A stretch of 63,998 nucleotides of DNA, counting the filler, from Jimgerdemannia flammicorona (Eukaryota), in assembly GCA_003990765.1 (NCBI GenBank). It is 3 parts of 3 records of this genome, joined end to end, with 100 filler letters (N's around TTAATTAATTAA, not from the genome) between each part and the next. Parts side by side here need not be neighbours in the genome. Positions count along the whole stretch, not along the records: positions 1 to 21,453 come from RBNJ01001448.1; 2 more parts are not named here. The stretch is one strand, 5' to 3'. Shown here in pieces: positions 1 to 31,015 of this stretch; positions within the stretch are counted from its first letter, which is position 1; every line of letters begins with the position of its first letter. The notes under the pieces are model-generated. The model saw only the letters and a program-made list of their open reading frames with translations. It searched no databases and was not told where the DNA came from. The position numbers and the translations under genes are program-made.

Positions 1-2019
1 AAAAAAAAAAAGTAGAAACACCTCCCCAAACTCCCTCACCTTTTGTTCCTGAGACAAATGAGTTGCCACCAGAAGATGAAGAAATAGAACAAGAAGAATG
101 AGAACCTGCTGCTCTAAAGCCTAAGAAGAAGTACACTCTGAAGACCATGCCTAGAGACATTTACAATGAAGCCTGGCAGAAGATTCAAAAAGCCAAGATG
201 GAAGTTCCTCTTCTACAGTTCTTGTAACTGATACCAGCTGGAGTCCAAAACAAATTGCTGAGAACCACCAGGTCTAGCACTGGCCAAATTCCGATTCCAC
301 AGCAAGAACCAGCTTCCATTCCTATTCAAGCAGCTAAAAGACATGTCAGCACCTACTTATATAGAAATATTGGAGGACAAAAGGTGAAGATCCTCATAGA
401 CACAGGAGCAGCTGTCTGTGTCATTGTCAAACAATTCCTAGATACCCTCCAATGGCCTATTGATGGACCATCTAATCTCAGCATCATAGTAGCAGTGGAG
501 CCCGAACTCAACCCCTTGGAGAAGTACAAAATATCACAATCTCTCTTGGATACATTCAGTTCTCTATCCCCAAAGCTGTTGTCACTGAAGCTGTCACCTA
601 TGATATGATTCTTGGTACCAACTGGATGAAGGAAATGAATACAGTTGTTGATATTGACCAACAGGTACTCAAGTTTGACTACTGAGGCAAGAAGTACAAA
701 GTTAAGGTGACCAGCTATGAGTAATCAAAGAAGAAGAAGAAGGTCACTATTCAGGAAGAGTATGCCAGTAGTAAAGAATCTACCACAGAAGAAGAGAAAG
801 AATCTGAAGATAGAAATGACCCCAGACTCAATCTCTGAATCAATCTGGTAGATGACTGACCAGAAGATAATATGTGGGCCAAGAACACTATCTCTATTAC
901 CATTGGAGCTATTGCAGGAGAAGCCAAAGGATGCCCTACATGCCTCAAGAGACACAAGTGTCCCAAGCACTCCTCTAAGATCACGGGAACAAGGAAATCG
1001 CCTGGCACAGCCTGCCCAGAGTGCAGAAGGAAGAAGAAGAAATACAGACATGTTCCAGAAACACCTGCAACCGAAGCTACAGAAGTACAAGCAATTTGGG
1101 GTCAAGAATCATCTGAGGAAGAAGAAACTTCTGACCAAGAAGTTCCTGAACAAGAAGCACCTGATGAAGAAGAGGTCCCTGAACTCATTCCCTAGGATGA
1201 CTCTCACTGGACACTATCTGAAGACAATGACCCTTGGAATACAGAAGAAGGATTCAGTATAATCACCATTATTCCCAAGAAAGAAACTCACCAAGAAAAG
1301 ACTTTTTGGCTAGGAAGATGCCTACACCAAATAGTCTTCCACTCTCTCTGAGACTACTGCTATCAGTGTCATCTGTTGGACCAATAAGAAAGACAGAGAC
1401 CCCAGAGACCAGAACCCCCAACTACTCTTGCACAGTCTACTACCTTTCAAGAAGTTACCATAAGGTTATAAAGTCGATTTAGGGGATAAGACTTTTTCAC
1501 CCAAACAGAAATATACCTCTTGTCTACCCTTCCCCCAACCTATGATCAAGATGGATACCAATTCTCAAGACAACAAGAGATAAATAGCTGGGAACATCAT
1601 TTTTGGGTAATGGGATATTACAACTATGAGAGACACCCTGACTGCCAAGACTGTAGACACCAGAAGATTCACCTCAGTCATGATGTTGCAGTGCATACTT
1701 TGAAGAAAGGAGATAACCAAAGCCAGATCTGAAAAAGCCAGATTCAAAAAAGCCAGACCAAGAAGCCTGGAAAAAGAATTCTCAAGATCTATGATTTGAG
1801 AGAAGACATTCTAGCTCTCATCAGACATGCAACCTGCCAAAGATAGGCAGAAGATACCACCAACTTCATAGAAGCCCTTGACCCTACAGGAAGGAGGGGA
1901 ATCAACTACCTCCAAGACCCCTCTACTGGAGCAGATGGCCACACCTCAACCTTAGAGCTTGAAGGCTCTCTGCTAGTAGAGCTTCAGTCTTAGAAAAGCC
2001 TGAACTCAGCAAGGATATT

Positions 2020-2425
2020 GCCCAGTATGTCCTGCTGCACCCCAAGGCCAAACCCCTGACCAAAGCCCACCCTGAGGATATAGGATATGATCTTCACAGC
2101 CTGGAGGATAAATCTATCAAGCCTGGAAAAACCTTCATGATCAGAATTGGATTAGCCATGCAGCCACCCCAAGGAGCTTATATTCAACTGACCTCAAGGT
2201 CTGGACTTGTCAGACAAGGGATAACTGTAGAAGGAGGAACCATTGACCCTGGATATATAGGCGAAATCAAGATTATCCTATACAACAATAGTGCAGAATG
2301 GCACTGAATCATTAGAGGACAGAAGATTGCCCAAGCAGTCTTCATGAAGGTCAAGACCCCACAGTTACAGGAAGTCTCTGAACTAACTGAAGGAACAAGA
2401 CAAGCCAAGGGATTTGAAAGTTCAG
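2020..2425 (+). pseudogene. dUTPase domain of element A pol (between protease and RT)
   Basis: Translation HPKAKPLTKAHPEDIGYDLHS...SRSGLVRQGITVEGGTIDPGYIGEIKIILYN...QKIAQAVF...RQAKGFESS matches trimeric dUTPase motifs I-V; one in-frame stop. Confidence 0.9.
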
Positions 2426-3727
2426 ATAGGAAGGAGATACATCTCCTTCAAGTCAACCACCTCAAGAGGAATGTTCCCCAGCAAGTGTACTGACAATCAG
2501 TCAGACTGCACAAGAATCTCATCCTGGAGCTTAGAGAATAAACTATCTTCAAAATCTTTGCACCACCTGACCCCAGAAACCTTTTCTTTGAACCCAAGAA
2601 AGATATCCTATACCTGGATATAGAGGGACACACATTCCCTGATAAGATGAAACCAGTACACTCCCGAGCAACCAACCAAAGTTGGGAGACCATCATCTTG
2701 CCAAGAGGAACCATCATAGGACATCTGGTGCCTTTTCTCAACTGAACTCATAGGGAAGTTTATGAACTAAACCTATCAGGAAATGGCAAAAGGTCCCAGA
2801 AGAAAGGAAAGACCCCTCTGTGACCCAGGAGACAGTGAAGCCTTCTACCAATATTGGAGAAGAATTGACACCCCAATAATAGCAACAACTAGTAGAACTT
2901 CTCAACAAATATCAAGATATCTTTACTACCAATTATGGCAACCTGCCATACAACCTATCATATCACCATAGTATAAATACAGGAAATGCAACACCCATCT
3001 GGCAGAAACCCTATAGAATACCCCATCACTTGAAAATATTCAAAAAGAGCACATTCAAGAACTCTTAGACAATGGAGTCATCTGACCCTCCACTAGCCCC
3101 TAGACCAGCCATATACTTATTGTACCAAAGAAAGGAGGATGGAGACTCTGTATAGATTACAGGAAACTCAATTCAGTCACTGAGAAGGATGCTTATCCTT
3201 TGCCCAGAATCGATGATCTTTTGGATCAGTTACAGGATACCAGATACTTCAGCAGTATGGATCTTTTCACAGGATTCCATGAGATCCCCATGGACTCCAA
3301 GGATATTCAAAAGATAGCCTTTCTTACTCTAGGAAAACTGTTTGAATACCTCTGAATGCCCTTTGGACTCTGCAATGGACCCCCCACCTTTTAGAGGATA
3401 ATGAATTCAGTCTATATTCCTTTGATCCACTACTGCCTGATTGTATACATGGATGATTCCAACATCTATTCAGTGAATTTCAAAGAATACCTGCACCACC
3501 TAGAGGAATTCTTCAAGCTCACTCACAAAAATCACTTGAGATTGAATGCAAAGAAATGCTACTTTAGGAAACAGAAACTTGAATTCCTGGGATTCATGGT
3601 TTCAAAAGAAGGAACTCATGCAGATCTAAAGAAAACTGAGAAGATCAACAATTGGCCAATACCCAAGACTCCAAAAGAAATACTATCATTTCTGATGCTA
3701 GTATCCTACTACAGAAGGTTCATTAAG

Positions 3728-5790
3728 TATAAGCACACAACCTCCAAGTCACTGAAATCACACATCACTCTCTGAACAAGCCACTGAAATCACATGTGAC
3801 CTCTGAATAAATCTGGAAATCACTTGCTTGATCATGAAGCTGAGTCAAACTGAAGTCACAGCACACAAAGCTGAGTCAATATAAAGTCACAGAACACAAG
3901 ATTTATACAAACAGAATCTTACCAATCAGGACCAAATGCATATATACCAAGTACTGAGATGTGTCAAAACAGAGAACCAAAACAAACAACAAACCATAAC
4001 TTCCAAACATACAAATATGACCACCAAGATCTACACCTGTATTCATACTGACATTTGGAATGCCATTGTCAACCAAGCCACTCCCCCTCTGCCTCTCATG
4101 AATATTCATAGCTGGGCACCCCTCTATTTTGTGGAAGCCCAATGGAATGCCCTAAACATGCTCAATGAGGCCCACTGAATTGGACAAATCTCAAGCTACT
4201 ACCAGATTGGCTGCCTCCTAGAAGACATAGTCAAACACCACCATGATACAGACATTACCCAGATGTCTCAACACCAGAAACTCATTGCCTGCAAATACCA
4301 AGAACTCTTCTATGAGTATAGCACTGTTATTCCCCACCTCTGAGTTACTACAGCCAAAATGATTGCTACCCTGTCCTATGGCCAAATCAATAACATAATA
4401 CAAGAACTCAACCACAAGTACCTTGAGTATGTTGAAACCATAGACAGAACCTTCCCACACCCCAATGATCATATCCTGCAAATACCCCAAGTCAGATATG
4501 CCATGAAGGATGTCTATAATATAATCCACTTCGATGAAGACAAAGTAGAAGACAATGATCCCTCTGATACCAACATGACCTCAAGCCAAGGATCTCTGCC
4601 AACCCTGATCACACCACCAACCTTGCTGATGAACTTATTACAATTCATAACAGTATACGAGACTTATTGGGACAATGACCACTGACATAAATACCAACCT
4701 GCATTCATCTCTGATTACTTCAACTATAATAAAGAGACCAGAGAACACAACCTGTACCTTCAGACAACCCTTGAGAATGAACCAACCACTCTACCATCTG
4801 AGTATGAATGATATGAACTACTGCTGCCAGCTTACTACAACTCTGTAACTCATAGTGCTGTAACCTACAGAAGGTATATAGACAGCAAATCTGATAAAAG
4901 TGAAGATGATGCACCCCTCCTTTACCCGCCAATACCTTACCCTGCATACAAGATGGATGATACCATCTTGTAGGATAGAGATGAAGTTCCAATGTATTAT
5001 TACTTCAGTGAACAAGGAGAAGTAATCCACAAATCACTTTTTCTAGATGACTACTTCATCAGAGATGATGTCATTGATGGTGATTTCATTGAAGACTACT
5101 CAGACAGTGTCTAAACCTATAAATAGCTTAGCAGTCATAGTATAGTTAGATTAGTCTTGTATGACATGACTGTGAACTGACTCAGCAGTCAGATGATCTC
5201 TTGACATATCAGATCACTCTTGTACTATGTGACTATATTCCAACTCAGTAAGGCACTTAGTGCTACATCCATATCTAGCATAGTTCAGATAGCCCCTCAC
5301 TAGTATAAATATCCCCTCTCCCAGACCTCAGAATCTCAGACTCAAACACACAAGAACATTCCTGAATACTTTCCCACAATATTCCTTCACACAACTACTC
5401 CTAGTATAGCAATATCATGAAAAGCGAATAAACCTATTTAATAACCAACAAACTACTCTTAAGTAAATTTACTCCCCATTAGATCCCACTCCTAACCCCA
5501 TTATGAAAATTCCTAATTGGGTATTGTCTGCAGCAATATGCCAATTCAACTAAGCTGGTCTTAGTTTCTTGAACTTTCTGAAATATGGAAAATCCTGAAC
5601 ATCCAGAACTAGTCCGAAAAAGGACTTTGGTTGAGATGTCAACCCAATCTTGAAATCAATAAGCATAGAGGATGTACTCTATATGAAATTGATCTTAACC
5701 ATAAGAAAACAGTCTTCCAGAATATCCAGAACTTCCAGAAAACCCTTCCAGAACTATGTAATAGATACCCTAAAAAGCAACCCTCTTACA
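3728..5790 (+). repeat. 5' LTR of element B
   Basis: Colinear with 12314-14375 and 35065-37042; starts TA (mutated TG) AAGCACAC and ends CTCTTACA; TATAAAT near 5303, AATAAA near 5427; short tandem repeats 3750-3900. Confidence 0.95.
4017..5114 (+). pseudogene. ~365-codon accessory ORF of unknown function inside the B LTR (U3)
   Basis: One frame from ATG 4017 to TAA 5112-5114, interrupted only by transition-type stops. Same frame seen at 12602-13699 (one frameshift) and in the solo LTR (minus, ~35730-36753). Confidence 0.75.
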
Positions 5791-6751
5791 ACTTGGTAGC
5801 AGTAGTTTACAATCCAATTCCACTTCAAGATGCTTCCTCATCCTGCTATAAACCCATCTGTAAATTCCTACAAGTTGGTATAAAGCCCAATCTCTGAACT
5901 GAAATTTATCCTGAACCATCTGACAATCTGGAGAGAATTGAACCTAATATACAAGAACAATTTGACCTCCACATCTGCAACAAGTGGGACAAACTTCATT
6001 TGAAGAAAGAAATACTCTAGTTAAATCAGCAAATAGGCGAAACCCTATTCACTGAACTCCTTACTCTACACCCAGCAAGTCAAGATGAAGAAGGTCTTAT
6101 TGAAGCCTTCTTTACTCTTCTCAATAAGAGTTTTGTCAGCTCCATAAATCTGAGCGACCTAGGATAACTAGCAGTAGTCTTTCTAGCCTTAGTTCCTCAT
6201 AAAGCCCAAGCCTCTGTAGCCAAGTAGCTCAACACTATCAACTTTCACCATACCAGGACCAAGACTGCACTATACTACTGATTCCAGAACAGCAAGGCCT
6301 GCCATATTCTTAAAGAAGAAGCAAGAGAAACCCTTCATCAACTACCTGACCCTGAACCAGAAGCAGGCTCTGCTACAGCCCTATCTGAATCTGAAACCAA
6401 CACTGAACCTGAACTTGACTTCGAATTAAGTCCATCTGAAATCAGATATACAACTGATTTCATCTACTTCAACACTGAGCAAACCCAATTACACAGAGAC
6501 CAAACTGAAGAGGAGGAGGAGTATCTCAGTGAATTTGATCCCGGATATACCACCAAAGGAGAAGCACCTCCATTAGGATAGAATACACCTATACAGCAAC
6601 AACAGTTATCTATCAAGCCCTCACTCCAGACCCACAACTACTACTCTAGCAACTTACACAGACCAAAAGAACCCCATCACACTCTGCACCAGTACCTCAA
6701 GTAGTACCAGTAACACCACTACCAGCAGTCCAACCACCTCCAGTAAACAAT

Positions 6752-7790
6752 ATGGTGAACCAACAGATTCTAGACCTCACAGCCTAGATAGCCATAATGG
6801 TAGCAACCATTACTGCCTTAGCTGAACAGACCCAACCTACCAAAAATCTGAGCCTACCTACCTTCAATGGTACTGCACAAGAAGTCCAAAGCTTCATTAG
6901 TATAGTTGATACCAACTTTGAAGCCAATAAATGGACCAATGAGTGAGTTGCTGACCATATTCTGACAAACAATCAAGACCACACTCTGGGACAACTCTTT
7001 GCAACCACTACAGCCTATGTCCACCAAGTTGTTACATTCTTCTGAGGACCTGCTGAAGAATAGTGGCAAACCCTTTCTGAAAAACCCCTCATATAGGATA
7101 CCCAACCTACAGTAGTTGCTCAGAATGCAGCAAACAATACTCCAGGATATAGAGCCCATCCTATGGCCCCTGGACTCAAACAACTCATGATTGCTCAATA
7201 CCACAGCGAAACTATAATTGCTGAATCCCGAGTAAAACTCTGCAACCTCAAATTCAATGTACATGACAAAGAAGAATTTGAAACCTTCTGTATAAAACTC
7301 GAGTCACTCCTGAACACTGTTGGCCTAGGATACATTGCCAATGATGAAGCATGAAATGGTACAAGAGCAGACCATTTATTCGATGTACTGCCTGAATGGC
7401 TTACTAGAAAAATCCAAGAACAAGGCTGCTCAGTTGGTTGTGATCACCAACAATGGTATCTGGCAAGAATCAAGACTATGGTCAAGTGAATCCTAACAGC
7501 TGGACCAATTCTACCCCAAAGACAATTCAACAACAAGAAAAAGACTTGAACCAAGAAAGAAGAATCCAAGCATGAAGCATTCTGAACTCCCTCCATATCC
7601 ACTTCTTGGTCACCCAGAAATCATGAACCCATGCAGCCGAGTACCTTCAAGAAACTCACTGAAGGCAAAAGGAATGAACTTTGAAGAAGCAGAGCATGCT
7701 TATATTGCTGAAAGATAGGATACATGGCCAGCATCTACCCTAACCAAAAACCCTGAACAGCAACATGAGCAACTGTTACCACTCTGCACC
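6752..7790 (+). pseudogene. gag of element B
   Basis: LSLPTFNGTAQEVQSFI capsid-like start; degenerate zinc knuckle CLYC*KIGYMASIY (C-x2-C-x4-H-x4-C with transitions) at ~7697-7740. Confidence 0.75.
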
Positions 7791-7816
7791 ACCTCAATAA
7801 CCTGACTACCAGAACA

Positions 7817-10800
7817 CTAGACTTTGTCAAGTTAAGACAAACTGCTAAGGCCCCAACCAAAGGAAGTCAAAAAGCAGCTGGATATAACCTGTATGTAGCT
7901 GAAGAAGCTATAGTTTCCAACCGAGAAGTCAAGCAAGTCTATACAGGAATTAGTATCCAAATCTCTGAAGGACATGTTGGAAGAATATGCTGTTGCAGCA
8001 GTCTAGTATTGAAAGGACTCTCAGTAGAAGGAGGAGTCATTGACAAAGATTATACAGGTGAAATTATTGTTCTTATCCAAAACCACAGTTGGACACCCTT
8101 CAAGATCTCTATTGGTTTCTGTATTGCTCAGATTCTATTTGAAAAAATTGAATCAACCCTGATAATTAAGGAAGTCCCTGAACTACTACCCACCATCTGA
8201 TGATCCAAAGGATTTGACTCATCAAACAAGGCCTCAGCCCAACCTACCATAAACAAAGAAGAACAATTCTACAAGAAAATCGAAGATGGATATATACCAA
8301 GTGGCCAATGCCCTTATGGCATTGGAATGTACTCTTCCCAAATGATTGATGATTGCTTCTCTTGTGTCAATGAACTGGCTCAAAGAAGAACCAACAGAAA
8401 GAAGGCTCCTACAACCAAAATCACCACTATTGGATCAGACAAACTGCATATACTTAAAGCTTTTGTCAACTGAGCACCTGTTAAGATTATGATAGACAGT
8501 GGTGTCTCAGACAACTTCATCAATAAAGAAATAGCCAACAGACTTAAGGTTTTCACCTCTCTAGTACAACAAACCCAAGCAGTTGCCACAGCTGATGGAA
8601 CCTCACATGTTATTAGCAAGGAAGTCCACAATCTACCCTTCCAAATTGGTGACTAGTGAGTACATGTTACCCTCCAGATCATATCACTCCCTGATAATGA
8701 AATCATCCTTGGGACTCCATAGTTAAAACAAGAGAACCCCATGATCGATTGGATAAACCATTCTCTGACCATCAAGAAAGGATGCCACAACTTCAAACTG
8801 CAAGGCAAAAAGGATCCACTTAATTCTAGTGACCCTGGACCAAAGATCATCCACATTAACAAGCTACAACTCAAGAAATTGGCCAAGAAATACCCTCTCT
8901 TCACCATCTCCATCCACCTATCCAAAGGAGAACCCAAAAACTCTGAAGAAGATTTTTCCAAAGTTAACAGCCATGTCAGACCACTACTCCAGAAATTCTG
9001 AGACATATTCCCGAAGAAGCTCCTGAAAGGCCTACCTCCCAAATGAGCAGTAGACCATACTATCAAGACTATTTCAGATACCAAACCAGCCTTCAAGTCA
9101 ATCTACCACATGTCTCTGAGAGAAATTGATGCACTCAAGAAAGAAATTGATGAACTCCTAGAATAAGGATTCATCAGATCCAGCATATCACCTTATAGTA
9201 CACCAGTCCTATTTGTTGTCAAGAAAGGAGAAGACCTGCGAATGTATATTGATTACTGTAACCTTAATGAACAGACTATCAAGAACTGTTACCCACTACT
9301 AAGGATCAATGAAATATTCAATAGACTTACCAACCCACAATTTATGAGCTCCTTTGACCTGCGAAATGATTACTAGCAAATTGCCATGAAAGAAGAAAAC
9401 ATCTACAAGACAGCCTTCCGAACTCACTATGGACACTTTGAGTTCCTGGTTATGTCTTTTGGCTTAACTAATACTCCTGCAACCTTCCAGACACTGATGA
9501 ATACTATCCTGCACCCATACTTGGACAAATTTGTTATTGTCTATATTGATGACATTCTAGTCTTCAGCAAAACTCTGGAGGAACATCTTGAATACCTTGA
9601 ACTAGTACTACTGAAACTCTGAGAAAACTGACTCTTTATAAAACTCAGCAAGTGTGAATTTCTCCTGAAGGAAATCCAATTCCTTGAACATATTATCACA
9701 CTGAATGAAATCAAAGTGGACCCCAGCAAAATCTCTGCAATCAAGAATTGGCCCAGACCCAAGAAGCTGAAAGATCTCCAGTCATTCTTGGGATTAGCAA
9801 ACTATTATAGGTGATTTGTTGCCAACTTTGCTAAAATCACCACCACTCTCACCCAAATGACCAAGTATAGTAAGAAAGAAAAACAGCCCTGGACCACGAA
9901 ACAAGAGAAAGACTTCAACAATCTTGTAAATTGGAGACCCAAACAAGATACAGCCTTTCAAGCATTGAAAGATGCCTTGATAACCACTCCAGTACTTCAG
10001 GCAGCCAATTCTACCCTACTATACAAAGTCACTACTGATGCCTCTGACCTAGCTCTTAGAGCAGTGCTCATGCAAGAAGGACACCCTGTGGTCTATTACT
10101 CCTACAAGTTCAATGATGTCAAAATTAACTATACAACCCATAAAAAGAAAATACTAGCCATTGTAGATACTCTGATCAAATAGCGATCATACCTAGAAGG
10201 AGCACACTTCACTGTATTGACTGACCACAAATCATTAGTCAATATTAAGACCCAGGCTACCCTTTCTCGAAAGCAAGCCAGATGGATGAAAGTCCTCACC
10301 AACTTTGACTATGAAATCCAGTACTGCCCTGACAAGGAAAATATTGTTACCAATACAATCTCCAGACCACCAATCAAAGAAGTTATCCAAACCCTCATCT
10401 TGATTACAAACTCTATCATGGAACAAATTATCGTAGCATGTGCTGATGATAAAGAAGCTCAAGCACTCTGAGAAATCCTGAACAGTGATGATACTGACAA
10501 GTATACACAGTACCATCAATACCAACTGAAGGACAATACTATCTACTACAAGGACAGACTGTATGTCCTAAACAACTGAGACCTCCAAAGGACTATCCTA
10601 TTCAAATGTCATGATACCCCTACAGCTGGACATTTAGAATTTGATAAATGTTACAAAGTTATCTCCCGAAACTTCTATTGGCCCTGCATGGCAGACCAGC
10701 TCAAGACCTACATTACTTCCTGTGATGCCTGCCAATGGAATAAGTCCTCAACACTAGCAAAACCTGACCTACTCCACCCTATTCCAGTACCATCTGCTAA

Positions 10801-11884
10801 TTGGGAACAAATCTCTATGGACTTCATTGTACAACTACCCCAAACCAAGAATGGGAAAGATGCAATTGTTGTCTTTATGGACTATCTCAGCAAACAAGCT
10901 CACTTTGTATCAACTACCACTACTGCAACAGCACCAGATATAGCTACACTCTTGTTTGACAACATTTTCTGCTATCATGGTCTTTCTAAGATCATTGTTA
11001 GTGACTGAGACCCAAAATTCACCAGCTATTTTTGGAAAGCCCTCCATGCACACCTTGGAACGAAACTTGCACTATCTACAGCTTTTCACCCTGAAACTAA
11101 TGGCCAAACTGAAAGAATGAACTGAACTCTGGAACAAATGCTAAGGAACTATGTTTCCTACAGACAAGATGATTGGCATGAACACCTCACTGTAGTTGAG
11201 TTTGCCTATAACAACAGCAAGCAAGCCTCTCTCAGAATGATACCATTCTTTGCCAATACTGGACAAAACCCAAACACCTCTTTGACACTCATCCGAACTA
11301 CTGAAGAACTCTCTACAGTCGAAGCCATTGAAGAATTCCTACTCTGAATATATAATCTGAGCCAGATTGTAATTGAGAATTTATCGTGAGCCCAAGAACA
11401 ACAGTTACAGTATATTAACCAACACTGCTGGGAAGAAACCTTTAACATTGGAGAAAAAGTTCTACTGGACATCTGAGGATACCAAGTTGACAACCTCAAG
11501 CACAGACCATCTACAAAGCTGAACAGCAAGTTCATTGGACCATTCAAAGTCATCGCACAAGTCTCTCCTACTTCCTATAAATTGGCACTACCAGACACCA
11601 TTAAGATTCACTCAGTCTTTAATGTCCAACATCTCAAGTGATATAATGAAAATAATGACAAACTATTTTCAAACCAGACCACCAAACCACCTGCACCTGT
11701 CATTATTAATGACCAAGAAGAATATGAAGTTGAACAAATTCTCAACAAATGTGTCCACAAAAACCACCCAGAGTACCTTGTCAAATAAAAAGGTTACCTG
11801 ATCTACAATGCAACCTGGAAACCCAAGAGCAATCTCCAGAATGCTACCGACTTAGTTCAGGAATATGATTCCTTGAACAACTAA
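7817..11884 (+). pseudogene. pol of element B: dUTPase, protease, RT, RNase H, integrase, chromodomain
   Basis: dUTPase AAGYNL/GGVIDKDYTGEI (7817-8225); protease IMIDSGVSDNFI (~8485); [13 protein letters not shown] and [37 protein letters not shown]; chromodomain EEYEVEQILNK...YLVK*KGY...ATWKP (11716-11884). Confidence 0.92.
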
Positions 11885-12313
11885 AACTATATACTCTACA
11901 CCTATCTGTACATACTATATATTATCCTCCCAAACACTATAATTACTACAAATAAAATCAAAAACTCAGCAAGTCAAGACATAAGAATACCGATCCTGTA
12001 GAAAAATAGCAAAACTAAAAGCCAGCCTATTCTCCCCATACCACTGATGGAAAACGAGGCATAGATATTTAAGAAGATTCCTTAGAAGAAATTCTCCAGT
12101 AGTGAATGACATCAGAATCACTTCCGGCACATAGCATTGAACACATGACCCTTTAATGTATGAATCTAATATGTTAGACAACTGTACTATGAGCATGCCA
12201 CTTTCTGAGAAAAATGGACTTCACTGGACTTTTGACCTCTCAAATGGTATAACAATACTAGAACAAAATTAGAAGGCCTCAATAAGGATATCGAAAGCTA
12301 AGAAGGGGAGAGT

Positions 12314-14375
12314 TGTAAGCACACAACCTCCAAGCCACCGAAATCACATGTCACTCTCTGAACAAGCCACTGAAATCACATGTGACCTCCAAACAAATCT
12401 GGAAATCACCTGCTTAATCATGAAGCTAAGTTAAACTGAAGTCACAGCGCACAAAGCTGAGTCAATACGAAGTCACAGAACACAAGATTTATATAAATAG
12501 AATCTTACCAATCAGGACCAAATGCATATATACCGAGCACTGAGATGTGTCAAAACAGAGAACCAAAACAAACAACAAACTACAACTTCCAAACACACAA
12601 ACATGACTATCAAGATCTACACCCATATCCGTGCTAATATTTGGAATGCTATTATCAACCAAGCCACTCCCCCTCTGCCCCTCATGAATATCCATAGCCA
12701 GGCACCCCTCTATTTTATGGAAGCCTGATGAAATGCCCTAAACATGCTCAACAAGGCCCACTGAATTGGACAAATCTCAAGCTACTACCAGATTGGCCAC
12801 CTCCTAGAAGATATGGTCAAACACCACCATAATACAGATATTATCCAGATGTCTCAACACCAGAAACTCATGTCTGCAAACACTGAGAACTCTTCTATGA
12901 GTATAGTGCTGTTATTCTCCACCTCCGAGTTACTATAGCTGAAATAGTTGCTACTCTGTCTTATAGCCAAATTGACAACATGATATAAGAACTCAATCAC
13001 AAGTATCTTGAGTATGTCAAAACCATAGACAGAATCTTTCTACACTCTAATGATCATATCCTGCAAATGCCTCAAGTTGGATATACTATGGAGGATGTCT
13101 ATGATATAATCTACTTTGACAAAGATGAAGCAGAAGACAATGATCCCTCTGATACCAATATGACCTCAAGCCAAGGATCCCTGCCAACTCTGATCACACC
13201 ACCAACCTTACCAATGAACTTATAACAATTCATAACAGTATACAAGACTTATTGGAACAATGATCACTAGCATGAATACCAACCTGCATTTACCCCCGAT
13301 TACTTCAACTATAACAAAGAGACCAGAGAACACAACCTGTACCTTCAGACAACCCTCAAGAATGAACCAACCACTCCACCACTCGAGTATGAATGACATG
13401 AACTACCATTGCCAGCTTACTACAACTCTGCAACTTATAGTACTGTAACCTACAGAAGGTATGCAGACAGTGAATCTGATGAAAGTGAAGATGATGCACC
13501 CCTCCTTTGCCCACCAATACCTTACCCCATATACAAGATGGATGATGCCATCTTGTGGAATGGAGATGAAGTTCCAATGTATTATTACCTCAGCAAACAA
13601 GGAGAAGTAATCTGCGAACCACTTTTCCTAGATGACTACTTTATCAGAGATGATGTCATTGATGGTGATGTTATTGAAGACTACCCAGACAGCGTCTAAA
13701 CCTATAAATAGCTTAGCAGTCATAGTATAGTTAGATTAGCCTTGTACAATGTGACTGTGAACTGACTCAGTAGTCAGACAATCTCTTGACATGTCAGATT
13801 ACTCTTGTACTACGTGACTGTATTCTGACTCAGCAAGGTACTTAGTGCTACATTCATATCTAGCATAGTCCAGATAGCTCCTCACTAGTATAAATACCCC
13901 CTCCCCCAGACCTCAGAATCTCAGACTCGAACATATAAGAACATTCCTGAATACTTTCCCACAATATCTCTTCATATAACTACTCCTAGTATAGTAATAT
14001 CATGAATAGCGAATAAACCTATTTAATAATCCACAAACCACTCTTAAGTAAATCTGCTCTTTATTAGGTCCCACTTCTAACCCCATTATGAAAATTCCTA
14101 ATTGGGTATTGTCTGCAGTGATATACCAATTCAACTAAGCTGGTCTTAGTTTCTTGAACTTCCTGAAATATGAAAAATTCTGAACATCCAGAACTAGTCC
14201 AAAAAAGGACTTTGGTTGAGATGTTAATCCAATCTTGAAATCAATAAGTGTAGAGGATGTACTCCATATGAAATTGATCTTGACCATTTTCTTATGGTCT
14301 TCCAGAACATCCAGAACTTCCAGAAAATCCTTTCAGAACTACATAACAGTTACCCTAAAAAGCAACCCTCTTATA
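12314..14375 (+). repeat. 3' LTR of element B
   Basis: Starts TGTAAGCAC after the PPT and ends CTCTTATA (mutated CA); colinear with the 5' LTR. Confidence 0.95.
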
Positions 14376-15960
14376 TCAAGGATTTTGCCCAAATTGCTGC
14401 CCCAATCTGAATCCTTCTCAAGAAAGGAATGCCATTCAATAGACAGAATCACAGGAAAAAGCCTTCAGAGAACTCAAGAACTGCATGACTACAGCATCAA
14501 TCCTTGTGCACTCCAATCTATAGAAGCCATTCATCTTGTATACAGATGTTTCCAAAGATGGCCTAGGAGCAGTTCTAGCCTAAGAAGGACCTGACCAACA
14601 GTACCATGTGATAGCTTATGCAAGTAGAACTACCAATTAGCAGCAGATGAACTATGGTAGCACCAAACTAGAATGTCTTGCAGTCATATGGGTGGTCACC
14701 CTGTTCAAGCATTATCTTATTGGTAAAAGATTCACCCTGATCACAGACCATACAGCCCTCAAATAGCTATTTAACTGTAAGGAATCTGCCAGAATCCTAG
14801 CCTGCTAGATCCTTATCTTTCAGAATTACAAAATCACAATTATTCACAAAGCAGAGAAAGCTCACAACAATATTGATATACTTTCCCATCAGCCCCAATG
14901 AACCAGAAAAAGGGTGTTCTGAGGAACTACACCCTAAAGAAAGCTTCTTAGACCATCAAAGAACAAGAAGATCTCATCCAACAAGAACATCAGAAAGCCC
15001 ACCAAGGACAGACAAGCACAGAAGACAAGATTTGAAAACAATATCAACATTGGCCCTACCTCAGAACCCAAGTCTGAGATATCATTCAGAAATGTGACAT
15101 CTGCCAGAAGTACTAAGGAAAGAAGAACTATCAAGCCCCTCTGCAACCAATTTCCCCACTCACTCACATCTTTCAAAGATGGGGAATAGATGTAATTGGA
15201 CCTCTACCAGTTATACCAAGAAGAAACAAATATATCCTTGTATTTGTAAAACATCTGACCAAGTGGCCTGAGGCTTTCCTAATGGAAATCACAGATGCCC
15301 TAACCATTGTAGGCCTTCTCCATAGACTCACACTCATATATGGATTCCCAGAAGAACTCATCTCTGACCGAGGCACAGAATTCATCAACAATATAATTAT
15401 AAGTTATGCTCGAATTCACAAGATACATCTCAACTGGACCACATCATACTATTCCCAGACCAATGGCATGATAGAAAGGATGAACCAGACCATCAAGAAA
15501 GGACTTGCCCAAGTCAATTCTACCAATTGGGACCTCTGCTTACCTGAGATCCTATGGGAAATTTAGAACACCCCTACTGCCTCAACCAAACAAAAGCCAT
15601 TTGAAATAATGTTTGCTAAGAAAACAAGAACTGCTGACCATGAAAACCTTGGAGATCTTCTCAAGAAGGCAGAACAGTTATATAATCAGACTCGAGATCA
15701 GATTATCAAAGCCCAAGAAAGACAAAAGAAGTACTATGACCAAAGACAGAAGGATCAGGAGATCAAGATTAGAGATTAAGTATTAGTTTGGAGAAGTATG
15801 ATTAAAACAAACTTCACTGCCAAATTGGAGCCCAAATGGGAAGGATCTTATCTTGTATACAATATCAGAGAAACCAGCATCTATTTAAGAAGCATGGATG
15901 GATGAACCCTGAGAACATCAGTATACATCAATTGCCTCAAGATATATCTCTTCTCATACT

Positions 15961-17230: not shown

Positions 17231-20200
17231 TATACTTTGGGGTCCCTGATGTGGCATAAGGGGGTCAGGTGGTAGCAGTTGGCGAGGATGAGCTGGTGGA
17301 TGTCCTTGAGGAGGAGTGGGATGAGGCTGCTAGTGTAGGAGCTGACACTACGATATTGGATACAGGGTGACTGTGGGGAACTTGTTGTGGATACACAAGA
17401 TGATAGATAACCTTGCAGCAGAGGCTTTGGAGGAGGTAGACCTGTGGGCAATGCCTGAGGAGCATTGGGCAAGGATTCTGTATGGTGATGGAATGGTGGA
17501 GGTACTGAAGGTGGAGATTCTGGCAATTTTGCTGGAGGAGGAGGGATATGAGGTTGATGAGGTGAGGAAGGCAGAGCTGGGGGTGGTCGCTGGTGAGTGG
17601 GCAGACTACTGTTGGGCAGAGCATCATGGTCTGCAGCTCTGGCAGGAGGCCTGTCTGGAGTATTGCGAGGATTTTGAGGAGCATGAAGATGGGGCAATAG
17701 TAGAACTTCTGGGAGAGTTGGAGGCATGGGAAGCTGGGGAGAGGGAACTGGCTGCTGAATATGACTTGGACTTGGTGCAAGAGGGGCAGGATGCTGACTT
17801 ATAGAGGATGGGACCCCGATATATATCATTATTCTTTATGAACAGTACAACCAACATTTTCTCCTTAAATGTGAATGGGCTAAGGGGCTCTGGGCAGCAT
17901 AGGAACATTTTTACTTGACTCAAGGGATTGGAGGCTGATCTCTTTTTATTACAGGATGTTAAGTGTGAGGATAAGGATGATTGGGTAGAGTGGACTAGGG
18001 AATGGGGGGGGGTTGCTGCTTGGTTTGAAAAGGTAGTAATTCTGGTAAGGAAGGGCAGAGGAGACTTGGGGGGAATCAGGAGCTGGGGCAATTGCTTGGT
18101 CTGAGGAGATTGGTATTGGCCAGAGTGGGAATTGGTGAAGGTGGGCTCTTGCTACTGCCCTGCGGCTAGGGGTGAGAGGACTGTATGGATTAGGGGATTG
18201 CTGGAGGAGGGTATTCTCTTGGAGGAAGGGGTCGATATTCTCAGTGGGGACTTTAATATGGTTTGGGATCAGTATCTGGACAGAACTGATGGAGGGAGGA
18301 GTGCTAGGGGTAGAAGTGGAGGTCTGGATACATGGGAGGAGGTGGAGACATTGAGCTCCTTGGGGGATATGGGCAGAACAAGGTGGGGTGACACCAGGGT
18401 CTACATACATTGGGTGAATGGCTTGGGTACAAGGATTGACTGGATTCTGATGGTGGAGTGCTGGGGTTCGGATGTTTGGAAGGCATTGGAAGTGGAGTGG
18501 TGTCTATGGTCTGATCACTGGGGACTGTTGGGGTAGGGGTAGTTTGGGGGGAGTGGAGATGGACCCAGACATTGGCACCTTAACTTCTCCCTGCTGGCTG
18601 AGAAGGGGCTGTGGGAACTGTGGGTGGAGGACATTCAGGCAAAAGTTTTTATCTGGAAGTGTGAGGGTTTGCCTGTGGCTGTCCACTGGATGAGGTTGAA
18701 AGAGGCTGTGAGGGTTTATTGGGGAGAGGCTGGTAGAAAGGCTGGGAGGCAGAGAAGGAGGTACACGAGGTGTGCTTCCAGCAGGCTGAGGAGACTACAA
18801 ATAGATTGGATGGATTTGCTCACTATTGTAGGGGTGGAGGATTGGAGGATAGAGAGGGCAAAATTGGAGATAGTGGAACTACAACAGGTGCTGAGGGAAG
18901 AGGAGGAGACCCATATGTGGGGCATGGCTGCTAGGCTGTGGTGGCAGGGGCTTAAAGAGGGTGAGTGGCCTACTAGGTACTTATCGAGACTTCTCAAAGC
19001 TAGGAGAGTGCGTCATCGGTGAGATGGGGTCCTGGATGCTGATGGAGACATAGTACACGGCATGCAACAAATCTTGGGGGTCTTGAAGGAGAGATGGCAG
19101 GACTTGTGGAGTGAGAGAAGGGGGTGCAGATGGGGCAGAGATTGCGAATACACTAGACAAGTGGGGGCCACCGCAGGTTGCTGGACTGAGGGACTTGACC
19201 TTGCCAGTGCAGGGAGAGGAGATCCAGAGTGTCCTGGCAGCAACTAAGCTTGGGATGGCACCAGGGGAGGATGGATTGCCATGGGACTTCTGGAAGAAGA
19301 TGGTAAATGTCCCCAGAGTTTTGGGTGAGATGGCTGCTCTTTGTGACCATGTTCTTCAGAGTGGTGAGTGGGTTGGAGAGCAGGATCTGGGGCTGGTGGC
19401 CTTACTGTACAAATCAAGGGAAGGAGGGAAGACTGGAAGAACTGGAGGCTGATCATGCTTCTGGATATAGACAGGAAGATGGTGACTAAGATGATTGTTG
19501 CAAGGCTGCAGAAAGTTGCCCAACAGGTGCTGGGGGAAGAGCAGAGGGGCTTTGTTGGGGGCAGGCTAATAAGAGATGGGACTGCATGGGTTCATGGTAT
19601 CATTGAAGGGGCCCGGGCCTGTGGACTGGATAGAAGATTGGTCTTTCTGGACCAGGAGAAGGCCTACAACCATGTATGGCAGGTGTGGCTGGGAAAGGTA
19701 TTGGACTGAATTGGTATTCCTCCAACATTTAGAGCCTCTATATTGAGTCTGCTGGAAAGTAGTCGGGCAGCTCTGATGTGTAATGGTCACTGTGGGAGGG
19801 CATTTCCCTTGGGAAGAGGAGTATCTCAGGGGGACCCTCTATCCCCGATTCTCTATGCCCTTTCACTGGAGCCATTGATGGATAGGATTTGCCAGAAGGT
19901 AGCAGGGCTCTCTATATATAGTATAGTGTGGAAGGTGGGGGCCTTTACTGATGATATGGTGGTTGGACTTGGGTCTGTGGTAGATGTAGAGGTACTTCAG
20001 GAGACTGTGGAATGGTATGAGGCTCACTCGGGGGTGAAACTCAACTGGCATAAGTGTGAGACGATGGTGCTAGGGAATGGGTTAGTGGGTGGGGACGTCA
20101 TTGGAACAATTGTCCCTACTGGTGAGGTGGTGTGGTATCTGGGCATCTTCCTCTCTGTATATGGTTCTGTCTTGCCACGAGTGTGGTGGGAGAGCAGGGT

Positions 20201-21453
20201 GAATAGTTGGGGGGAGGCCCTTCAAGGTTGGGGAGGCTGCCATATCTCTCTAGCAGAGCAGGTGTTAATCCTGAATGTATATTGGTTCCCAAAGCTGTGG
20301 TATGTGACATATCACCTTGACTTCCCAGCATGGGTGGTGAAGAAGCTGACGAAGGTGGCTAGAGATTGGATTTGGGTGGGAAGGAGGTCCCAGGTCAGTT
20401 GGGATACTCTTGTGAGACTGGTAGTCAGGGGAGGTCTTGGCCTGGTGGATTTCCCTAAAAGGCTGCACTGCTTAAGAGCCTGGTGGTTGAAGAGAGCTGT
20501 GGAATTGCAGGGTGGAGGTTGGGTATCTCTACTGCAGAAGGTATGGAAGATGCGAACATCCCCTTGAGGGTCCTCCAGAGATCTGCTCTCTTTGGTGGGG
20601 CTGAATGGAATTCGGAGGCTGTGGTTCAAGGGCTTTTAGTGGAGAGTGGCTGATGAAGTGTACTGAATTGACCTGCGCTGGCAAGGTAACGAGGAGGAGG
20701 CAGTGTGGGGGTCTAATATGTGGCATTGGGATAGACTGCTCCTGGGGGGGTACTCTACTGACTGCATTCGATATTGGGGAGGGAGTAGAGTATCAGCAGG
20801 GGCTTGGCCAGGATCTTTGGCCGAGTGGCTGGCAGGCAGTTGGAATCAGAGAGGAGTGGGACTAGGCAGGCATCTGGTCTTGGAGTGCAGAGGTATGGAG
20901 GTGGCTTCCTCCCAAGTTCTAGGTGGTATGGTGGAGAATGTTGCAGTGGAATATCATGCTGAATTTCCACTTGGGGCATTTAGTAGAGGGTGGACAATTT
21001 GACTGTGAGGAGTGTTATGATGTTGGGCAAGCTGGGGGTCATGTACAGATGCCAGAACATTGGCTGGGAGAGTGTGAGGTTTTGGGGGAATTTTGGGCTG
21101 AAATAGGAGATAGACTGGGTGTGGGGTATCAGCTGGTAGGGGGGAGGGTCGTTGGGAGGACTTAAGATCTCGGCTTGTAGGTGGGGTGGGTGATAGTTGG
21201 CTTACTGTAGGGTGGGTGTTAGCAGTATGGGTGGGACTGGCAGGACATTGGCTTTTTGTATTTGAGGAGGGGCAGTGGTTAGGGCTATGAGAGAAGGTGT
21301 TAAGGTGGGAGGAGCTGGTGGGAGATCTGCTGACTGGATGGTGGGTGGGTTGGGGTCCTCAGGGGGGACAACATCGCAGTTTGGTAGTAAAGATCTGTGA
21401 GCAGAGTAGTGGGAGGGTGGGGATAGTGTTCGATAAAGTGGTCTTTTACAGGG
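17229..21453 (+). mobile_element. 5'-truncated L1/Tx1-type LINE, copy 1 (end of ORF1; ORF2 APE endonuclease-RT-CCHC), runs into the gap
   Basis: ORF2 ATG 17838 MNSTTNIFSLNVNGLRG; GDFN and SDH endonuclease motifs; RT QRGFVGGR, LDQEKAY, GVSQGDPLSP, FTDD; CEEC...EHWLGEC at ~21004-21075. Confidence 0.9.
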
Positions 21454-29250: not shown

Positions 29251-30419
29251 ACCCCATCAGAGTGCCAGACCTTGTGGCCACAGGCTTTTGTGCAGCCCTT
29301 ACATTCAGAGACACGGGGAGAGGAGGTGGAGGAGGAACCGGCGGAGGAGGGTGAGCGAGCAGCCAAAGGGGCAGCAGCACAAGGAACACCACCATGAGGA
29401 CAGACGGACTTGGCCGGGTGCCAGTAGGCATGGTGGAGGTGACCAGAGCAGACAGTGCAAGGCCAGGCCCCGACAGGGTGAGAACCAAGTTGGCGGCCAT
29501 GCTTGGGGGCAGGGGGAACGGAGGAGGAAGCCTTGGCGGGGGAGGGGGACCGGGAAGAGGCCGATGAAGCCTGGTTGGGCTTGGCGGGGGTCTTGGCGGG
29601 GGTCTTAGAGGGAGCCTTGGCAGTGGCAGCAGTGAAGGAACGAACCTCAGTATGAGCAGCGGCACGAGCTTCAGCGCAGATGGCCTCGGAGACTGAAACC
29701 TTGGAGGAGGTAGGCAGGAGAGCAGTGGCGGTGGCGCGAGCAGCGGCGGCAGCACGTGATGACTCCTGCTCGTGAAGGTGAGCAACAAAAGTGGTGCCGG
29801 CAAGGAGGAAACAGCATACAGCGTCGATGTCAGCGGTGACAGAAGGAATGTCTTGGATGGCGAAGCCACAGAAGGGGGCAACATCCGAAAGACAGGAGGA
29901 GGCGAAGGCCATGAAAGCGGCACAGACATAGTGGAAGGAGGCGGAAGCAGTGGCAGTGGAAGCAGCAGCAACATCAGCAGCGGCGAGCTTGGCAGCGGCA
30001 GTGGTGGCACAAACCTCTTTGGAGAGGGCTTGGCAGCGGGCCTCAGGGAGAACAGAGTAGTGGACGGTGGGTGGAGTGACGATGTCGATGTCATGGTGGA
30101 GATGAGTCTCCTTGGCGGAGAGGGCAAGAACCGATCAGAACTGAGAGAGGAGTGGACAACCAGAAGGACGAAGGTCCAAGGGGAGGGAGAGGATGGCAGA
30201 AGAGATGTAGGTCTTGAAGAAGATAGTGGCGGGGGTGAAGGCAGGGGGAGAAGGAGGAGGAAGTTCCTCATCCATGAGCTCGTCGACGAGGACGGAGGCC
30301 TCAAGGGCAGGCGGTACAGCAGAGGAGGAAGAAGGCCCAGCGGGAGCCAAGGGAGCAAACTCAGAGCCAGTGTCAAAGCGAATGGAAGACATGTAGAAGA
30401 GTGTGTATAAGGGGGACAA
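29181..30419 (-). pseudogene. ORF1 of the Penelope-like element (~400 codons, Ala/Pro-rich, C-terminal Cys/His motifs)
   Basis: ORFs 30135-30419 and 29181-29912 share one frame, split by one TGA; CTVCSGHLHHAYWHPAKSVCPH and CKGCTKACGHKVWHSDGVC. Confidence 0.65.
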
Positions 30420-30874: not shown

Positions 30875-31015
30875 TGGGATTGGCTCCCCCTTTATCTCTG
30901 CCTATCTCCGGTAGTCATGTGGTTCCTAATTCGGTTTGCCCTGAGTTGTGGCGCATCCTCCCTTTTGGGACGTCGTATTTTGTATATAAGGACCGCATTT
31001 TTACATGGCAATAAA
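30875..31015 (+). promoter_or_regulatory. Putative promoter/polyA module of the pseudo-LTR (also in the minus-strand copies)
   Basis: Reverse CCAAT (GGATTGGC), GACGTC, TATATAA (~30983) and AATAAA (~31010), upstream of the ORF1 start-equivalent. Confidence 0.4.

Follow-up and report, generated by a model that had tools for sequence, protein, structure and literature searches.

The LTRs of a Ty3/gypsy retroelement in Jimgerdemannia flammicorona display a long sense open reading frame (here termed the LTR ORF), and this raises the question of whether a gene once resided inside the LTR itself. The window analyzed is a stretch of 63,998 nucleotides, filler included, which consists of three joined parts of this genome, and the retroelement is termed element B. 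The frame is probably what remains of a genuine, ancestrally open accessory gene of ~365 codons resident in the LTR. This reading of the sequences is based on the presence of intact natural relatives, a codon-type base composition and a third-position bias of the transversions that separate two families. Coordinates are listed in Table 1.

Element B is a dUTPase-bearing chromovirus of the Ty3/gypsy group (Metaviridae), which is evident from its domain order, its chromodomain, its LTRs, a target site duplication (TSD), a primer-binding-site candidate and a polypurine tract (PPT). The element is inserted in the RT gene of another element (element A), whose interrupted RT frame continues past position 14380, and it is flanked by a 5-bp target duplication, TTAAG/TCAAG. 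Its 2.06-kb LTRs have 89.2% identity across 2059 nt (self-BLAST and MAFFT). The LTR termini are TG..CA; the TG and the CA are each mutated in one LTR and are intact in the other LTR and in the solo LTR. The primer-binding-site candidate is presumably a match to the end of the initiator-Met tRNA. Joints between the PPT and the LTR start are also present in contigs of public sequencing runs X1, X2 and X6. The 13 public runs listed for the family each contain a small share of it (no more than 0.16 of the sampled words).

In the single gag-pol frame of element B, the dUTPase is located between gag and the protease, upstream of the latter. It is followed in Pfam order by Asp protease (residues 889–997), RVT_1 (1144–1298), RT_RNaseH (1381–1505) and Integrase_H2C2 with rve (1596–1767). 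The chromodomain (PF00385, residues 1978–2026, E-value = 7.3e-10) is C-terminal to SH3_Tf2-1. Element A, which carries the element B insertion, also displays a dUTPase (positions 2002–2430). The nearest relative of the element B pol has 49% identity at most, and the named matches among the 120 listed are from green algae and plants. The integrase of a second element has named matches from sponge, fluke and plant.

Table 1. Positions of element B, the LTR ORF copies and associated features in the window.
Feature	Position	Strand	Remarks
Element B	3728–14375	+	decayed but complete Ty3/gypsy chromovirus; basis: LTR pair and TSD
5′ LTR of element B	3728–5790	+	2063 bp; self-BLAST and MAFFT alignment
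Promoter-like module	3837–3947	+	TGAGTCA at 3841 and 3872 (one per repeat unit), then CCAAT 3922, TATATA 3941
LTR ORF, 5′ LTR copy	4017–5114	+	365 codons, 5 internal stops, no frameshift
TATAAATA	5304–5311	+	kept in 4/4 LTR copies; presumed core promoter of genomic RNA
AATAAA, poly(A) signal candidate (R)	5427–5432	+	role assigned from the motif
Primer-binding-site candidate TGGTAGCAG	5794–5802	+	3 nt past the 5′ LTR end
dUTPase domain	7844–8224	+	Pfam PF00692, E-value = 3.7e-27, residues 685–811
Protease, RT, RNase H, integrase, SH3_Tf2-1, chromodomain (in this order)	8456–11869	+	one frame, stop-interrupted; Pfam
Polypurine tract AAGAAGGGGAGAG	12300–12312	+	one base ahead of the 3′ LTR
3′ LTR of element B	12314–14375	+	self-BLAST and MAFFT alignment
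LTR ORF, 3′ LTR copy	12603–13699	+	8 internal stops, 1-nt deletion near 12870
Solo LTR	35065–37042	−	TSD ATAAT on both sides
LTR ORF, solo LTR copy	36753–35731	−	6 internal stops, 75-nt in-frame deletion
Diverged LTR, related family, 5′-truncated	57113–57955	−	carries C-terminal part of the ORF
LTR ORF, diverged copy	~57955–57333	−	~codons 162–365, 10 internal stops, frameshifts
Diverged LTR, U5-side remainder	55392–55720	−	~1.4 kb of inserted DNA separates the two pieces

The first-pass annotation had described a sense frame of about 365 codons in the 2.06-kb LTR upstream of the TATA box, and this description stands. The frame starts with an ATG at position 4017 and ends with a TAA at 5112–5114. 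In three independent LTRs whose ends are clean, the frame sets in 289 nt past the first LTR base. It begins 290 nt after the PPT, and the 400-bp spacer between the pol stop and the PPT (positions 11900–12300) contains no part of it. The ORF is thus wholly inside the LTR, i.e. 3′ of the PPT-LTR junction and 5′ of both TATAAATA (5304) and AATAAA (5427). It is therefore present in both LTRs of element B, in the solo LTR and in part in the diverged LTR; this distribution had also been annotated and was recovered by self-BLAST, MAFFT alignment and HMM searches. An HMM search over the six frames of the whole window detected no copy or distant homologue beyond these four. All four are broken by 5–10 internal stop codons each, and a present-day function in the window is thereby excluded.

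The ORF frame of the 5′ LTR has six stop codons, the terminal one included, and the other five frames have 21, 38, 11, 26 and 22. The expectation from shuffled sequences is 19.8 ± 4.2 stops for the ORF frame, and none of 2000 shuffles gave six or fewer. Base composition by codon position is similar to that of a coding sequence of the same element: G frequencies at codon positions 1/2/3 of 0.27/0.08/0.12 (C-terminal ORF part, positions 4359–5111) compare with 0.24/0.12/0.12 in gag-pol, and the profile is flat in LTR sequence outside the ORF.

Codon-position bias is also seen in the substitutions. Transversions fixed between the group of element B and the solo LTR on one side and the diverged family on the other are distributed 7/2/19 over codon positions 1/2/3 (178 codons, chi-square p = 2.8e-4), and the same comparison in the adjacent non-coding region (positions 5115–5420) gives 10/8/6. 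Between element B and the solo LTR, which are only a short distance apart, the fixed transversions are 5/5/6 and constraint is not apparent. The divergence of the ORF between these two is 15–19%, higher than the 10–12% of the R-U5 part.

The stop codons differ between copies, e.g. the TGA at 4176–4178 of the 5′ LTR is CAG in the solo LTR, as first annotated. When the aligned copies were inspected for fixed stops and frameshifts, a stop in any window copy was found in 11 columns. All 11 show a sense residue in another copy or in an intact relative, and two of the 11 are shared as stops by the three full window copies. Indels of relatives were seen at 27 places in contigs of four public runs, and of the 12 places listed none is in gag-pol. 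Three of the 12 are inside the ORF (positions 4350–4356) and pair up such that the frame is restored; the other nine are in non-coding LTR or in the post-pol spacer. The earlier proposal of an open ancestor is thus upheld by the intact relatives, the gag-pol-like codon composition and the 7/2/19 transversion bias.

The intact relatives are two uninterrupted metagenome proteins. P0005 is an N-terminal sequence of 128 aa that shares the Met-Thr-Thr start, has 80% identity to positions 4017–4400 and runs off the contig end. P0002 has 247 aa, shares the C-terminus and displays 57%–61% identity to codons 115–365 (E-value = 1e-86). Both are protein fragments, from contigs of 998 and 1180 bp. The first Met of P0002 aligns with codon 115, and a shorter product in the P0002 lineage is possible. 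No homologue of the LTR ORF besides these two was found among 1.84 billion protein representatives. A third candidate, P0006 (747 aa, E-value = 4.9e-4, six stretches), is internally repetitive and was dropped as a compositional match. A search of metagenome, viral and genome contigs with the ORF alignment confirmed no relative, and a degenerate nucleotide pattern based on the conserved motif at the C-terminus matched 0 stretches in metagenome contigs.

The relatives also show how the window copies decayed. At the ten positions where P0005 has Arg, 21 of the 24 window cells hold Cys, His, Gln, Tyr or a stop, which is predicted from decay of CGN codons, and the ratio of observed to expected CpG in the LTRs is 0.07–0.18. 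Judged from these patterns, C-to-T and G-to-A transitions were the main cause of inactivation of the ORF copies in the window, around the time of insertion or later. The mutation rate per site and copy is 0.24 in CG, 0.14 in CA, 0.11 in CC and 0.03 in CT context with no CHG excess; decayed CpG sites inflate the CA class, and the rates therefore do not identify a particular methylation or RIP system.

For the protein, a helical head (~140 aa) followed by a disordered tail (~220 aa) is predicted. In the AlphaFold model of the whole ORF (pLDDT 29), helices are confined to residues 1–141; the model of the N-terminal 128 aa displays five helices (pLDDT 53), and the Atlas model of P0002 has a pLDDT of 0.39. 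The tail has a strongly acidic composition with many Tyr, Phe and Pro residues, and a conserved acidic-hydrophobic motif is found at its end. Asp, Glu and Tyr constitute 30% of the C-terminal 200 residues vs. 16% of the N-terminal 165, in agreement with the annotated Asp/Glu/Tyr-rich C-terminal region of ~200 aa. P0002 has 46 Asp and Glu vs. 10 Lys and Arg, 36 aromatic residues, 24 Pro and no Cys.

Pfam analysis of the LTR ORF shows no family at E ≤ 0.01, and a sequence profile search of PDB gave nothing at E ≤ 10. Foldseek comparison with PDB gave 0 matches at E ≤ 0.001 (best E-value = 1.7). A search of the ESM Atlas by features returned nothing usable for P0002 and P0005; the rows for P0005 are unrelated small proteins with no common family. 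No signal peptide or transmembrane anchor of the kind expected in an env-like third ORF was detected, the maximal 19-residue Kyte-Doolittle mean being 0.57–1.19; the usual threshold for a membrane segment is 1.6. An origin of the ORF as a gag duplicate was rejected (hhalign probability 0.7%).

The U3/R border is presumed to be just downstream of TATAAATA at 5304, which has its own upstream repeats containing TGACTCA; a second TATAAATA is found at 5118. The promoter-like module upstream of the ORF contains a 31-bp tandem repeat in two units, and its CCAAT and TATATA are kept in all three full LTR copies. The module was considered as a duplicate of the downstream promoter and rejected, its local alignment score being 21 vs. 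a shuffle mean of 21.6.

The motif positions and a hint from read depth point weakly to a location of the ORF in U3. It is unlikely that the ORF, as a real gene, lies instead in R or the 5′ leader, with a genomic RNA that starts past the TATATA at 3941, the ORF as first cistron and an R of ~1.4 kb. Such an arrangement is suggested by the full promoter-like module (two TGAGTCA, CCAAT and TATATA), which is 75–180 bp ahead of the ATG and conserved in the copies. However a better TATA, TATAAATA at 5304 with the TGACTCA repeats upstream, is kept in each of the four copies, the diverged LTR among them, and AATAAA follows at 5427. Two runs, which are RNA only by conjecture, show 50–500 times more contig depth on positions 5164–5737 than on the ORF, and contigs leave the LTR end (5788–5790) into diverse flanks, as initiation near 5330 predicts; since these are contigs, the hint is weak. 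An R of 1.4 kb would also be exceptional. A quite different and more improbable origin is capture of a host gene fragment, carried as a passenger without a role for the element. LTR retrotransposons are known to capture genes, no retroelement protein family matches the ORF, and it displays no similarity to the element's own gag. Yet the search of protein representatives gave the two element-like fragments and no other homologue, and the codon-position composition of the ORF is that of gag-pol. In addition, codon-level constraint persisted while two element families diverged by ~30%, and the ORF carries a start and a stop of its own, its C-terminus being conserved at 57% identity.

That the frame arose by chance, or is a relic, in an A/C-rich LTR and never was a gene is highly improbable. 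The stop-riddled state of every window copy and the lack of a Pfam, PDB or fold match would fit such a frame. The shuffled sequences never gave so few stops, however, intact relatives are present at 57%–80% identity, and the transversions between families show the third-position bias (p = 2.8e-4).

For an accessory gene resident in U3, the following working is proposed. Reverse transcription of LTR-retroelements copies U3 to both DNA ends; the gene would thus be doubled in each provirus, and one copy would remain in the solo LTR after LTR-LTR recombination. In the genomic RNA the LTR ORF would be the 3′-terminal cistron, followed by ~300 nt and then by the LTR's own poly(A) signal. A cistron at this position would need a subgenomic RNA or its own promoter. 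The latter is favored because the TGAGTCA repeats, CCAAT and TATATA are located 75–180 bp upstream of the ATG, and if it holds, each LTR would be a small transcription unit. As to how the gene came to lie there, the first-pass annotation suggested that an upstream PPT shift or a capture may have moved a post-pol ORF into U3, and this origin is hypothetical.

The product may, tentatively, have acted in trans, as a regulator or adaptor, on the expression or RNA handling of its own element. This suggestion is drawn from the composition of the protein and from retroviral analogy, in particular with foamy virus tas, for which an internal promoter and an acidic activation region are known. A further proposal, which is rather doubtful, is that each LTR is a self-contained cassette of the promoter at 3837–3947, the 365-codon ORF and the LTR poly(A) signal, and that solo LTRs continue to express a factor that acts in trans and serves, or polices, the family as a whole. 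If true, a Ty3/gypsy element outside the retroviruses would have a regulator that is borne by its LTRs and dispersed with them, and whose fold and family are undescribed.

A conserved, selected ORF that is wholly in the U3 of a gypsy-type element would mean that the retroviral trick of placing a gene behind the PPT arose outside of retroviruses too. Genes can be missed when LTRs are masked as non-coding during annotation, and in principle a solo LTR could act as a gene as well as a promoter. The product, an orphan with a predicted helical head and an acidic, aromatic-rich tail, is a candidate retroelement regulator of a new kind. Because all copies in the window are dead, the value of the locus is limited.

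Among known systems, the LTR ORF and the additional ORFs (aORFs) of plant LTR retrotransposons are alike as extra ORFs of gag-pol elements with no function assigned. The plant aORFs covered by a review (PMC7264820) lie between the LTRs, and wording for an ORF inside or overlapping an LTR was not found in that review. In fungi, dUTPase-bearing chromoviruses are represented by PosPlaTy3 and by Phanerochaete and Tuber elements. In PosPlaTy3-3 of Postia placenta the dUTPase precedes the protease at the N-terminal side of pol, and a figure legend of the same paper names an “add. ORF” of unknown function (PMC2864245). Element B shares the dUTPase domain and its location at the N-terminal side of pol; however its pol has no more than 49% identity to any relative, and no fungal name is among the 120 listed matches. 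Cer1, a Ty3/gypsy element of C. elegans, encodes CERV 3′ of pol, which is reported as an orphan accessory protein with no homologues beyond close relatives and as needed for export of the genomic RNA (PMC10309623). Unlike CERV, the LTR ORF is inside the LTR, and no similarity between the two was found.

The closest parallels are retroviral. Phrase searches for ORFs in LTRs, which covered 8.4 million papers, led to papers on retroviruses (in most cases MMTV) or to phrases used in an unrelated sense; judged by titles and abstracts, none of these papers describes such an ORF in a non-retroviral LTR retrotransposon. LTR-internal accessory genes are a hallmark of a few complex retroviruses, e.g. 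sag and in part nef and bel. The nef gene of HIV and SIV and the foamy virus bel/tas genes are likewise 3′-terminal accessory genes that reach past the PPT into U3. They only overlap the LTR, however, whereas the LTR ORF is wholly inside it, 289 nt from the LTR start, and shows no homology to them. The LTR ORF has no sequence relation to MMTV sag (no Pfam match) and no hydrophobic segment (maximal 19-residue Kyte-Doolittle mean 1.2), and its carrier is a Ty3/gypsy chromovirus whereas that of sag is a retrovirus. In arrangement the two are alike: each is a sense ORF of a few hundred codons inside the LTR, thus present in both LTRs, and sag is, as the LTR ORF would be, located in U3 and the 3′-terminal gene of the genomic RNA.

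The LTR of element B, a decayed retroelement at positions 3728–14375 of the plus strand, contains a reading frame of 365 codons that starts with the ATG at 4017 and ends with the TAA at 5112–5114. This confirms an accessory open reading frame inside the LTR, as the first-pass annotation had it. The frame displays six stop codons in the 5′ LTR copy, the terminal stop included. The other two plus strand frames over the same segment have 21 and 38 stops and the minus strand frames have 11, 26 and 22; shuffled versions gave 19.8 ± 4.2, and in 2000 shuffles the count never fell to six or below. The annotation placed the frame in both B LTRs, in the solo LTR and partly in the diverged LTR. Comparison of the copies bears this out, and an ORF-based HMM searched against the window in six frames detects these four copies only.

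A coding history of the LTR ORF is well supported, on four lines that are independent of each other: natural relatives, stops that are not fixed, composition and constraint. Ancestral openness was judged copy by copy and against natural relatives. The alignment has 11 columns with stop codons, and in all 11 a sense residue is found in another copy or in an intact relative; only two of these columns have a stop in all three full copies. The earlier proposal of an open ancestor with stops that differ between copies therefore stands, including its example of TGA at 4176 against CAG in the solo LTR. One match, the metagenome protein P0002, came out of 305 candidates when 5.8 billion proteins were searched with a word index. 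It is an uninterrupted 247 aa sequence with 57% identity to codons 115–365 of the 5′ LTR copy (E-value = 1e-86) and 61% identity to the 3′ LTR copy, and its C-terminal end coincides with that of the ORF. When 1.84 billion representatives were searched exhaustively with a profile, three proteins reached E ≤ 0.001: P0002, a second metagenome protein (P0005) and a 747 aa protein that is repetitive and is regarded as noise. P0005 is uninterrupted over 128 aa, shares the Met-Thr-Thr start of the ORF, shows 80% identity to positions 4017–4400 and breaks off at the end of its 1180-bp contig. Both relatives are fragments known as protein sequences.

P0005 has Arg at ten positions, and 21 of the 24 corresponding cells in the window copies have Cys, His, Gln, Tyr or a stop; read from the alignment, this pattern is what decayed CGN codons leave behind. 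The CpG observed/expected ratio in the LTRs is 0.07–0.18, and 152 of the 154 differences between the B LTRs over 3729–5114 are transitions. Codon-position bias, which the first-pass annotation had proposed to examine, is present. Codon position 1 of the ORF has an excess of G and position 2 a deficit, as in B gag-pol, whereas LTR stretches outside the ORF are flat. Transversions are not products of transition decay and were used for the test of constraint. Those fixed between B plus the solo LTR and the diverged family number 7, 2 and 19 at codon positions 1, 2 and 3 (178 codons, chi-square p = 2.8e-4), against 10, 8 and 6 in the adjacent non-coding 5115–5420 (p = 0.61). A fifth and weaker line is the distribution of indels in contigs of four public sequencing runs (at least 80% likeness): among 12 listed of 27 indel places none is in gag-pol, three are in the ORF (4350–4356), where they pair up and restore the frame, and nine are in non-coding LTR or the post-pol spacer.

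Some observations speak against the gene reading or restrict it, the fragmentary state of the two relatives among them. The transversions that separate B from the solo LTR as fixed differences show no codon-position bias (5, 5 and 6), and B and the solo LTR have diverged more in the ORF (15%–19%) than in R-U5 (10%–12%). The differences within B's own LTR pair, 37, 16 and 39 at the three codon positions, are not due to selection since these LTRs diverged after insertion; the excess at positions 1 and 3 reflects the location of mutable sites.

Element B is the one complete element found by self-comparison of the window, whose content is nested decayed retroelements; annotation, tRNA and Rfam scans detected neither a host gene nor any tRNA or Rfam RNA in the window. 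The B LTRs are 89.2% identical across 2059 nt and have TG..CA ends, each terminus being mutated in one copy. A 5-bp target duplication (TTAAG/TCAAG) flanks B, which breaks the RT frame of another element; that frame halts at 3727 and picks up past 14380. The internal order in a single stop-broken frame is gag, dUTPase, protease, RT, RNase H, integrase, SH3_Tf2-1 and chromodomain, thus B is a Ty3/gypsy chromovirus with a dUTPase. The element hosting B (1–3727 and 14376 to ~16000) is another gypsy element and also has a dUTPase; therefore two different dUTPase-bearing families are nested here. A piece of 373 nt (11886–12260) in the spacer that follows the pol stop and precedes the PPT is skipped by one X2 contig, and this spacer is thus dispensable or variable in relatives.

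Features of element B, its LTR reading frame and related repeats
Feature	Position	Strand	Remarks
B 5′ LTR	3728–5790	+	self-comparison
B 3′ LTR	12314–14375	+	self-comparison
Promoter-like module upstream of ATG 4017	TGAGTCA 3841, 3872; CCAAT 3922; TATATA 3941		31-bp repeat, two units, TGAGTCA in each
Primer-binding candidate	begins 3 nt past B 5′ LTR		TGGTAGCAG
Purine run	terminates one base short of B 3′ LTR		AAGAAGGGGAGAG
ORF copy, B 3′ LTR	12603–13699		8 internal stops, one 1-nt deletion
ORF copy, solo LTR	36753–35731		6 internal stops, 75-nt in-frame deletion
ORF copy, diverged LTR	from ~codon 162 on		10 internal stops, frameshifts
Solo LTR, B kind	35065–37042	-	ATAAT at both flanks
Related-family LTR, truncated and interrupted	57113–57952 plus 55392–55720		72% identical to B LTR
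Host element of B, dUTPase	2002–2430
Host element of B, RT	3044–3724
Host element of B, RNase H	14452–14760
Host element of B, integrase	15048–15947

The ORF starts 289 nt past the LTR start and ends 190 nt ahead of TATAAATA at 5304, where the first-pass annotation had correctly seen a TATA box (~5303) downstream of the frame. The box is kept in all four LTR copies, and AATAAA follows at 5427. In the usual reading, U3 ends shortly past the TATA box and R contains the poly(A) signal; the ORF is therefore probably located in U3. It is established that U3 comes to stand at both element ends through reverse transcription, and this explains the presence of the ORF in both LTRs and in the solo LTR. 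Contigs of three runs have the same joint of PPT to LTR start as B, thus the boundary is common to relatives.

As part of U3, the ORF would be the last cistron of the genomic RNA with a trailer of ~300 nt before the poly(A) signal. To be translated, it would depend on a subgenomic RNA or on a promoter of its own. By eye, no obvious polypyrimidine-AG acceptor lies ahead of ATG 4017. The CCAAT and TATATA of the upstream promoter-like module are kept in the three full copies. A separate promoter appears the more likely route, and each LTR may thereby form a small transcription unit. Alignment rejects the module as a duplicate of the downstream promoter. Contigs of X1, X2 and X6 skip 31 or 71 nt at the LTR start (joints 3768–3800 and 3812–3884), thus the repeat number of this enhancer-like region varies among family members.

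In runs X6 and X10, guessed to be RNA, contig depth on 5164–5737 is 50–500 times that on the ORF, and contigs exit the LTR end (5788–5790) into varied flanks. These contig data, from a guessed library type, are weakly suggestive of initiation near 5330. Depth is 318–2618 on 5164–5737 (TATA-R-U5), ~3–56 on the rest of the LTR and ~0–9 on gag-pol; the peak could represent read-out transcription from LTRs or a short element that has this segment in common and is abundant in its own right.

Searches of Pfam families, PDB sequences, Atlas clusters and folds gave no match for the ORF protein, and comparison rejects a relationship to B gag. It has no membrane-spanning hydrophobic segment and is thus not env-like. 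Both predicted models are of low confidence: the whole protein (pLDDT 29) has helices confined to residues 1–141, and the N-terminal 128 aa (pLDDT 53, pTM 0.48) form five helices. The final 200 residues are 30% Asp, Glu and Tyr, in line with the C-terminal richness first reported. P0002, which represents the C-terminal 247 aa, has 46 acidic and 10 basic residues, 36 aromatic residues, 24 prolines and no cysteine. Short conserved blocks alternate with variable acidic linkers in this region, which ends in an invariant alternation of acidic and hydrophobic residues. In composition and predicted models, the protein is built like a small helical domain to which a disordered region of the interaction or activation type is attached. 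As a low-confidence best guess, by analogy with retroviral 3′ accessory proteins, the product may be a regulator or adaptor that acts in trans on expression or RNA handling of the element itself.

Nearly all decay of 3728–14375 and most other repeats is through transitions, which make up 212 of the 224 differences in the B LTR pair. C-to-T rates by following base are 0.24 (G), 0.14 (A), 0.11 (C) and 0.03 (T), with no CHG excess. CpG observed/expected is 0.01–0.17 in most 4-kb blocks and 0.43–0.57 at 20–32 kb and 36–40 kb. A less CpG-depleted, minus strand RT-bearing element is present at 25600–31146 (weak RVT_1 match in 27166–28734). Its flanking inverted and direct repeats of ~300–500 bp are 81%–92% identical (e.g. 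26669–27171 and 30643–31145); the layout is not of LTR type, and we presume that it may be DIRS-like. At 41510–42296, ~18 or more units of 23 bp are arrayed in tandem within long artificial-looking open frames (41386–42589) with no Pfam match. A G+C-richer RT-bearing family with strong GC skew has three copies, 73%–86% identical, at 17373–21051, 60042–63594 and 44253–47000 (inverted), one of which adjoins the truncated diverged LTR at ~57955.

B pol shows at most 49% identity to any protein matched, and the named organisms among the 120 matches listed are green algae and seed plants. For the integrase of a neighbouring element, identity reaches 38% at most, and the named matches come from sponge, fluke and plant. 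Diverged copies of the family are many in soil metagenomes and two coded organisms; X1 gave 7526 aligned pieces. Passages of PMC2864245 describe dUTPase-bearing chromoviruses in basidiomycetes and Tuber.

Exact-phrase searches of open-access text for LTR-internal or LTR-encoded ORFs gave retroviral cases, mostly MMTV, or unrelated uses. By titles and abstracts, none was a non-retroviral LTR retrotransposon with such an ORF, although earlier descriptions may exist. A review of plant accessory ORFs (PMC7264820) has none of the phrases that would place an ORF inside an LTR or make it overlap one. Accessory ORFs described for other LTR retrotransposons are located between the LTRs, whereas that of B is inside the LTR. 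Its position is like that of MMTV sag and partly like that of nef and the foamy virus bel genes, but the ORF belongs to none of these families. Element B is thus a case of an LTR retrotransposon whose accessory gene occupies a site that, to date, is known to hold one in complex retroviruses only.
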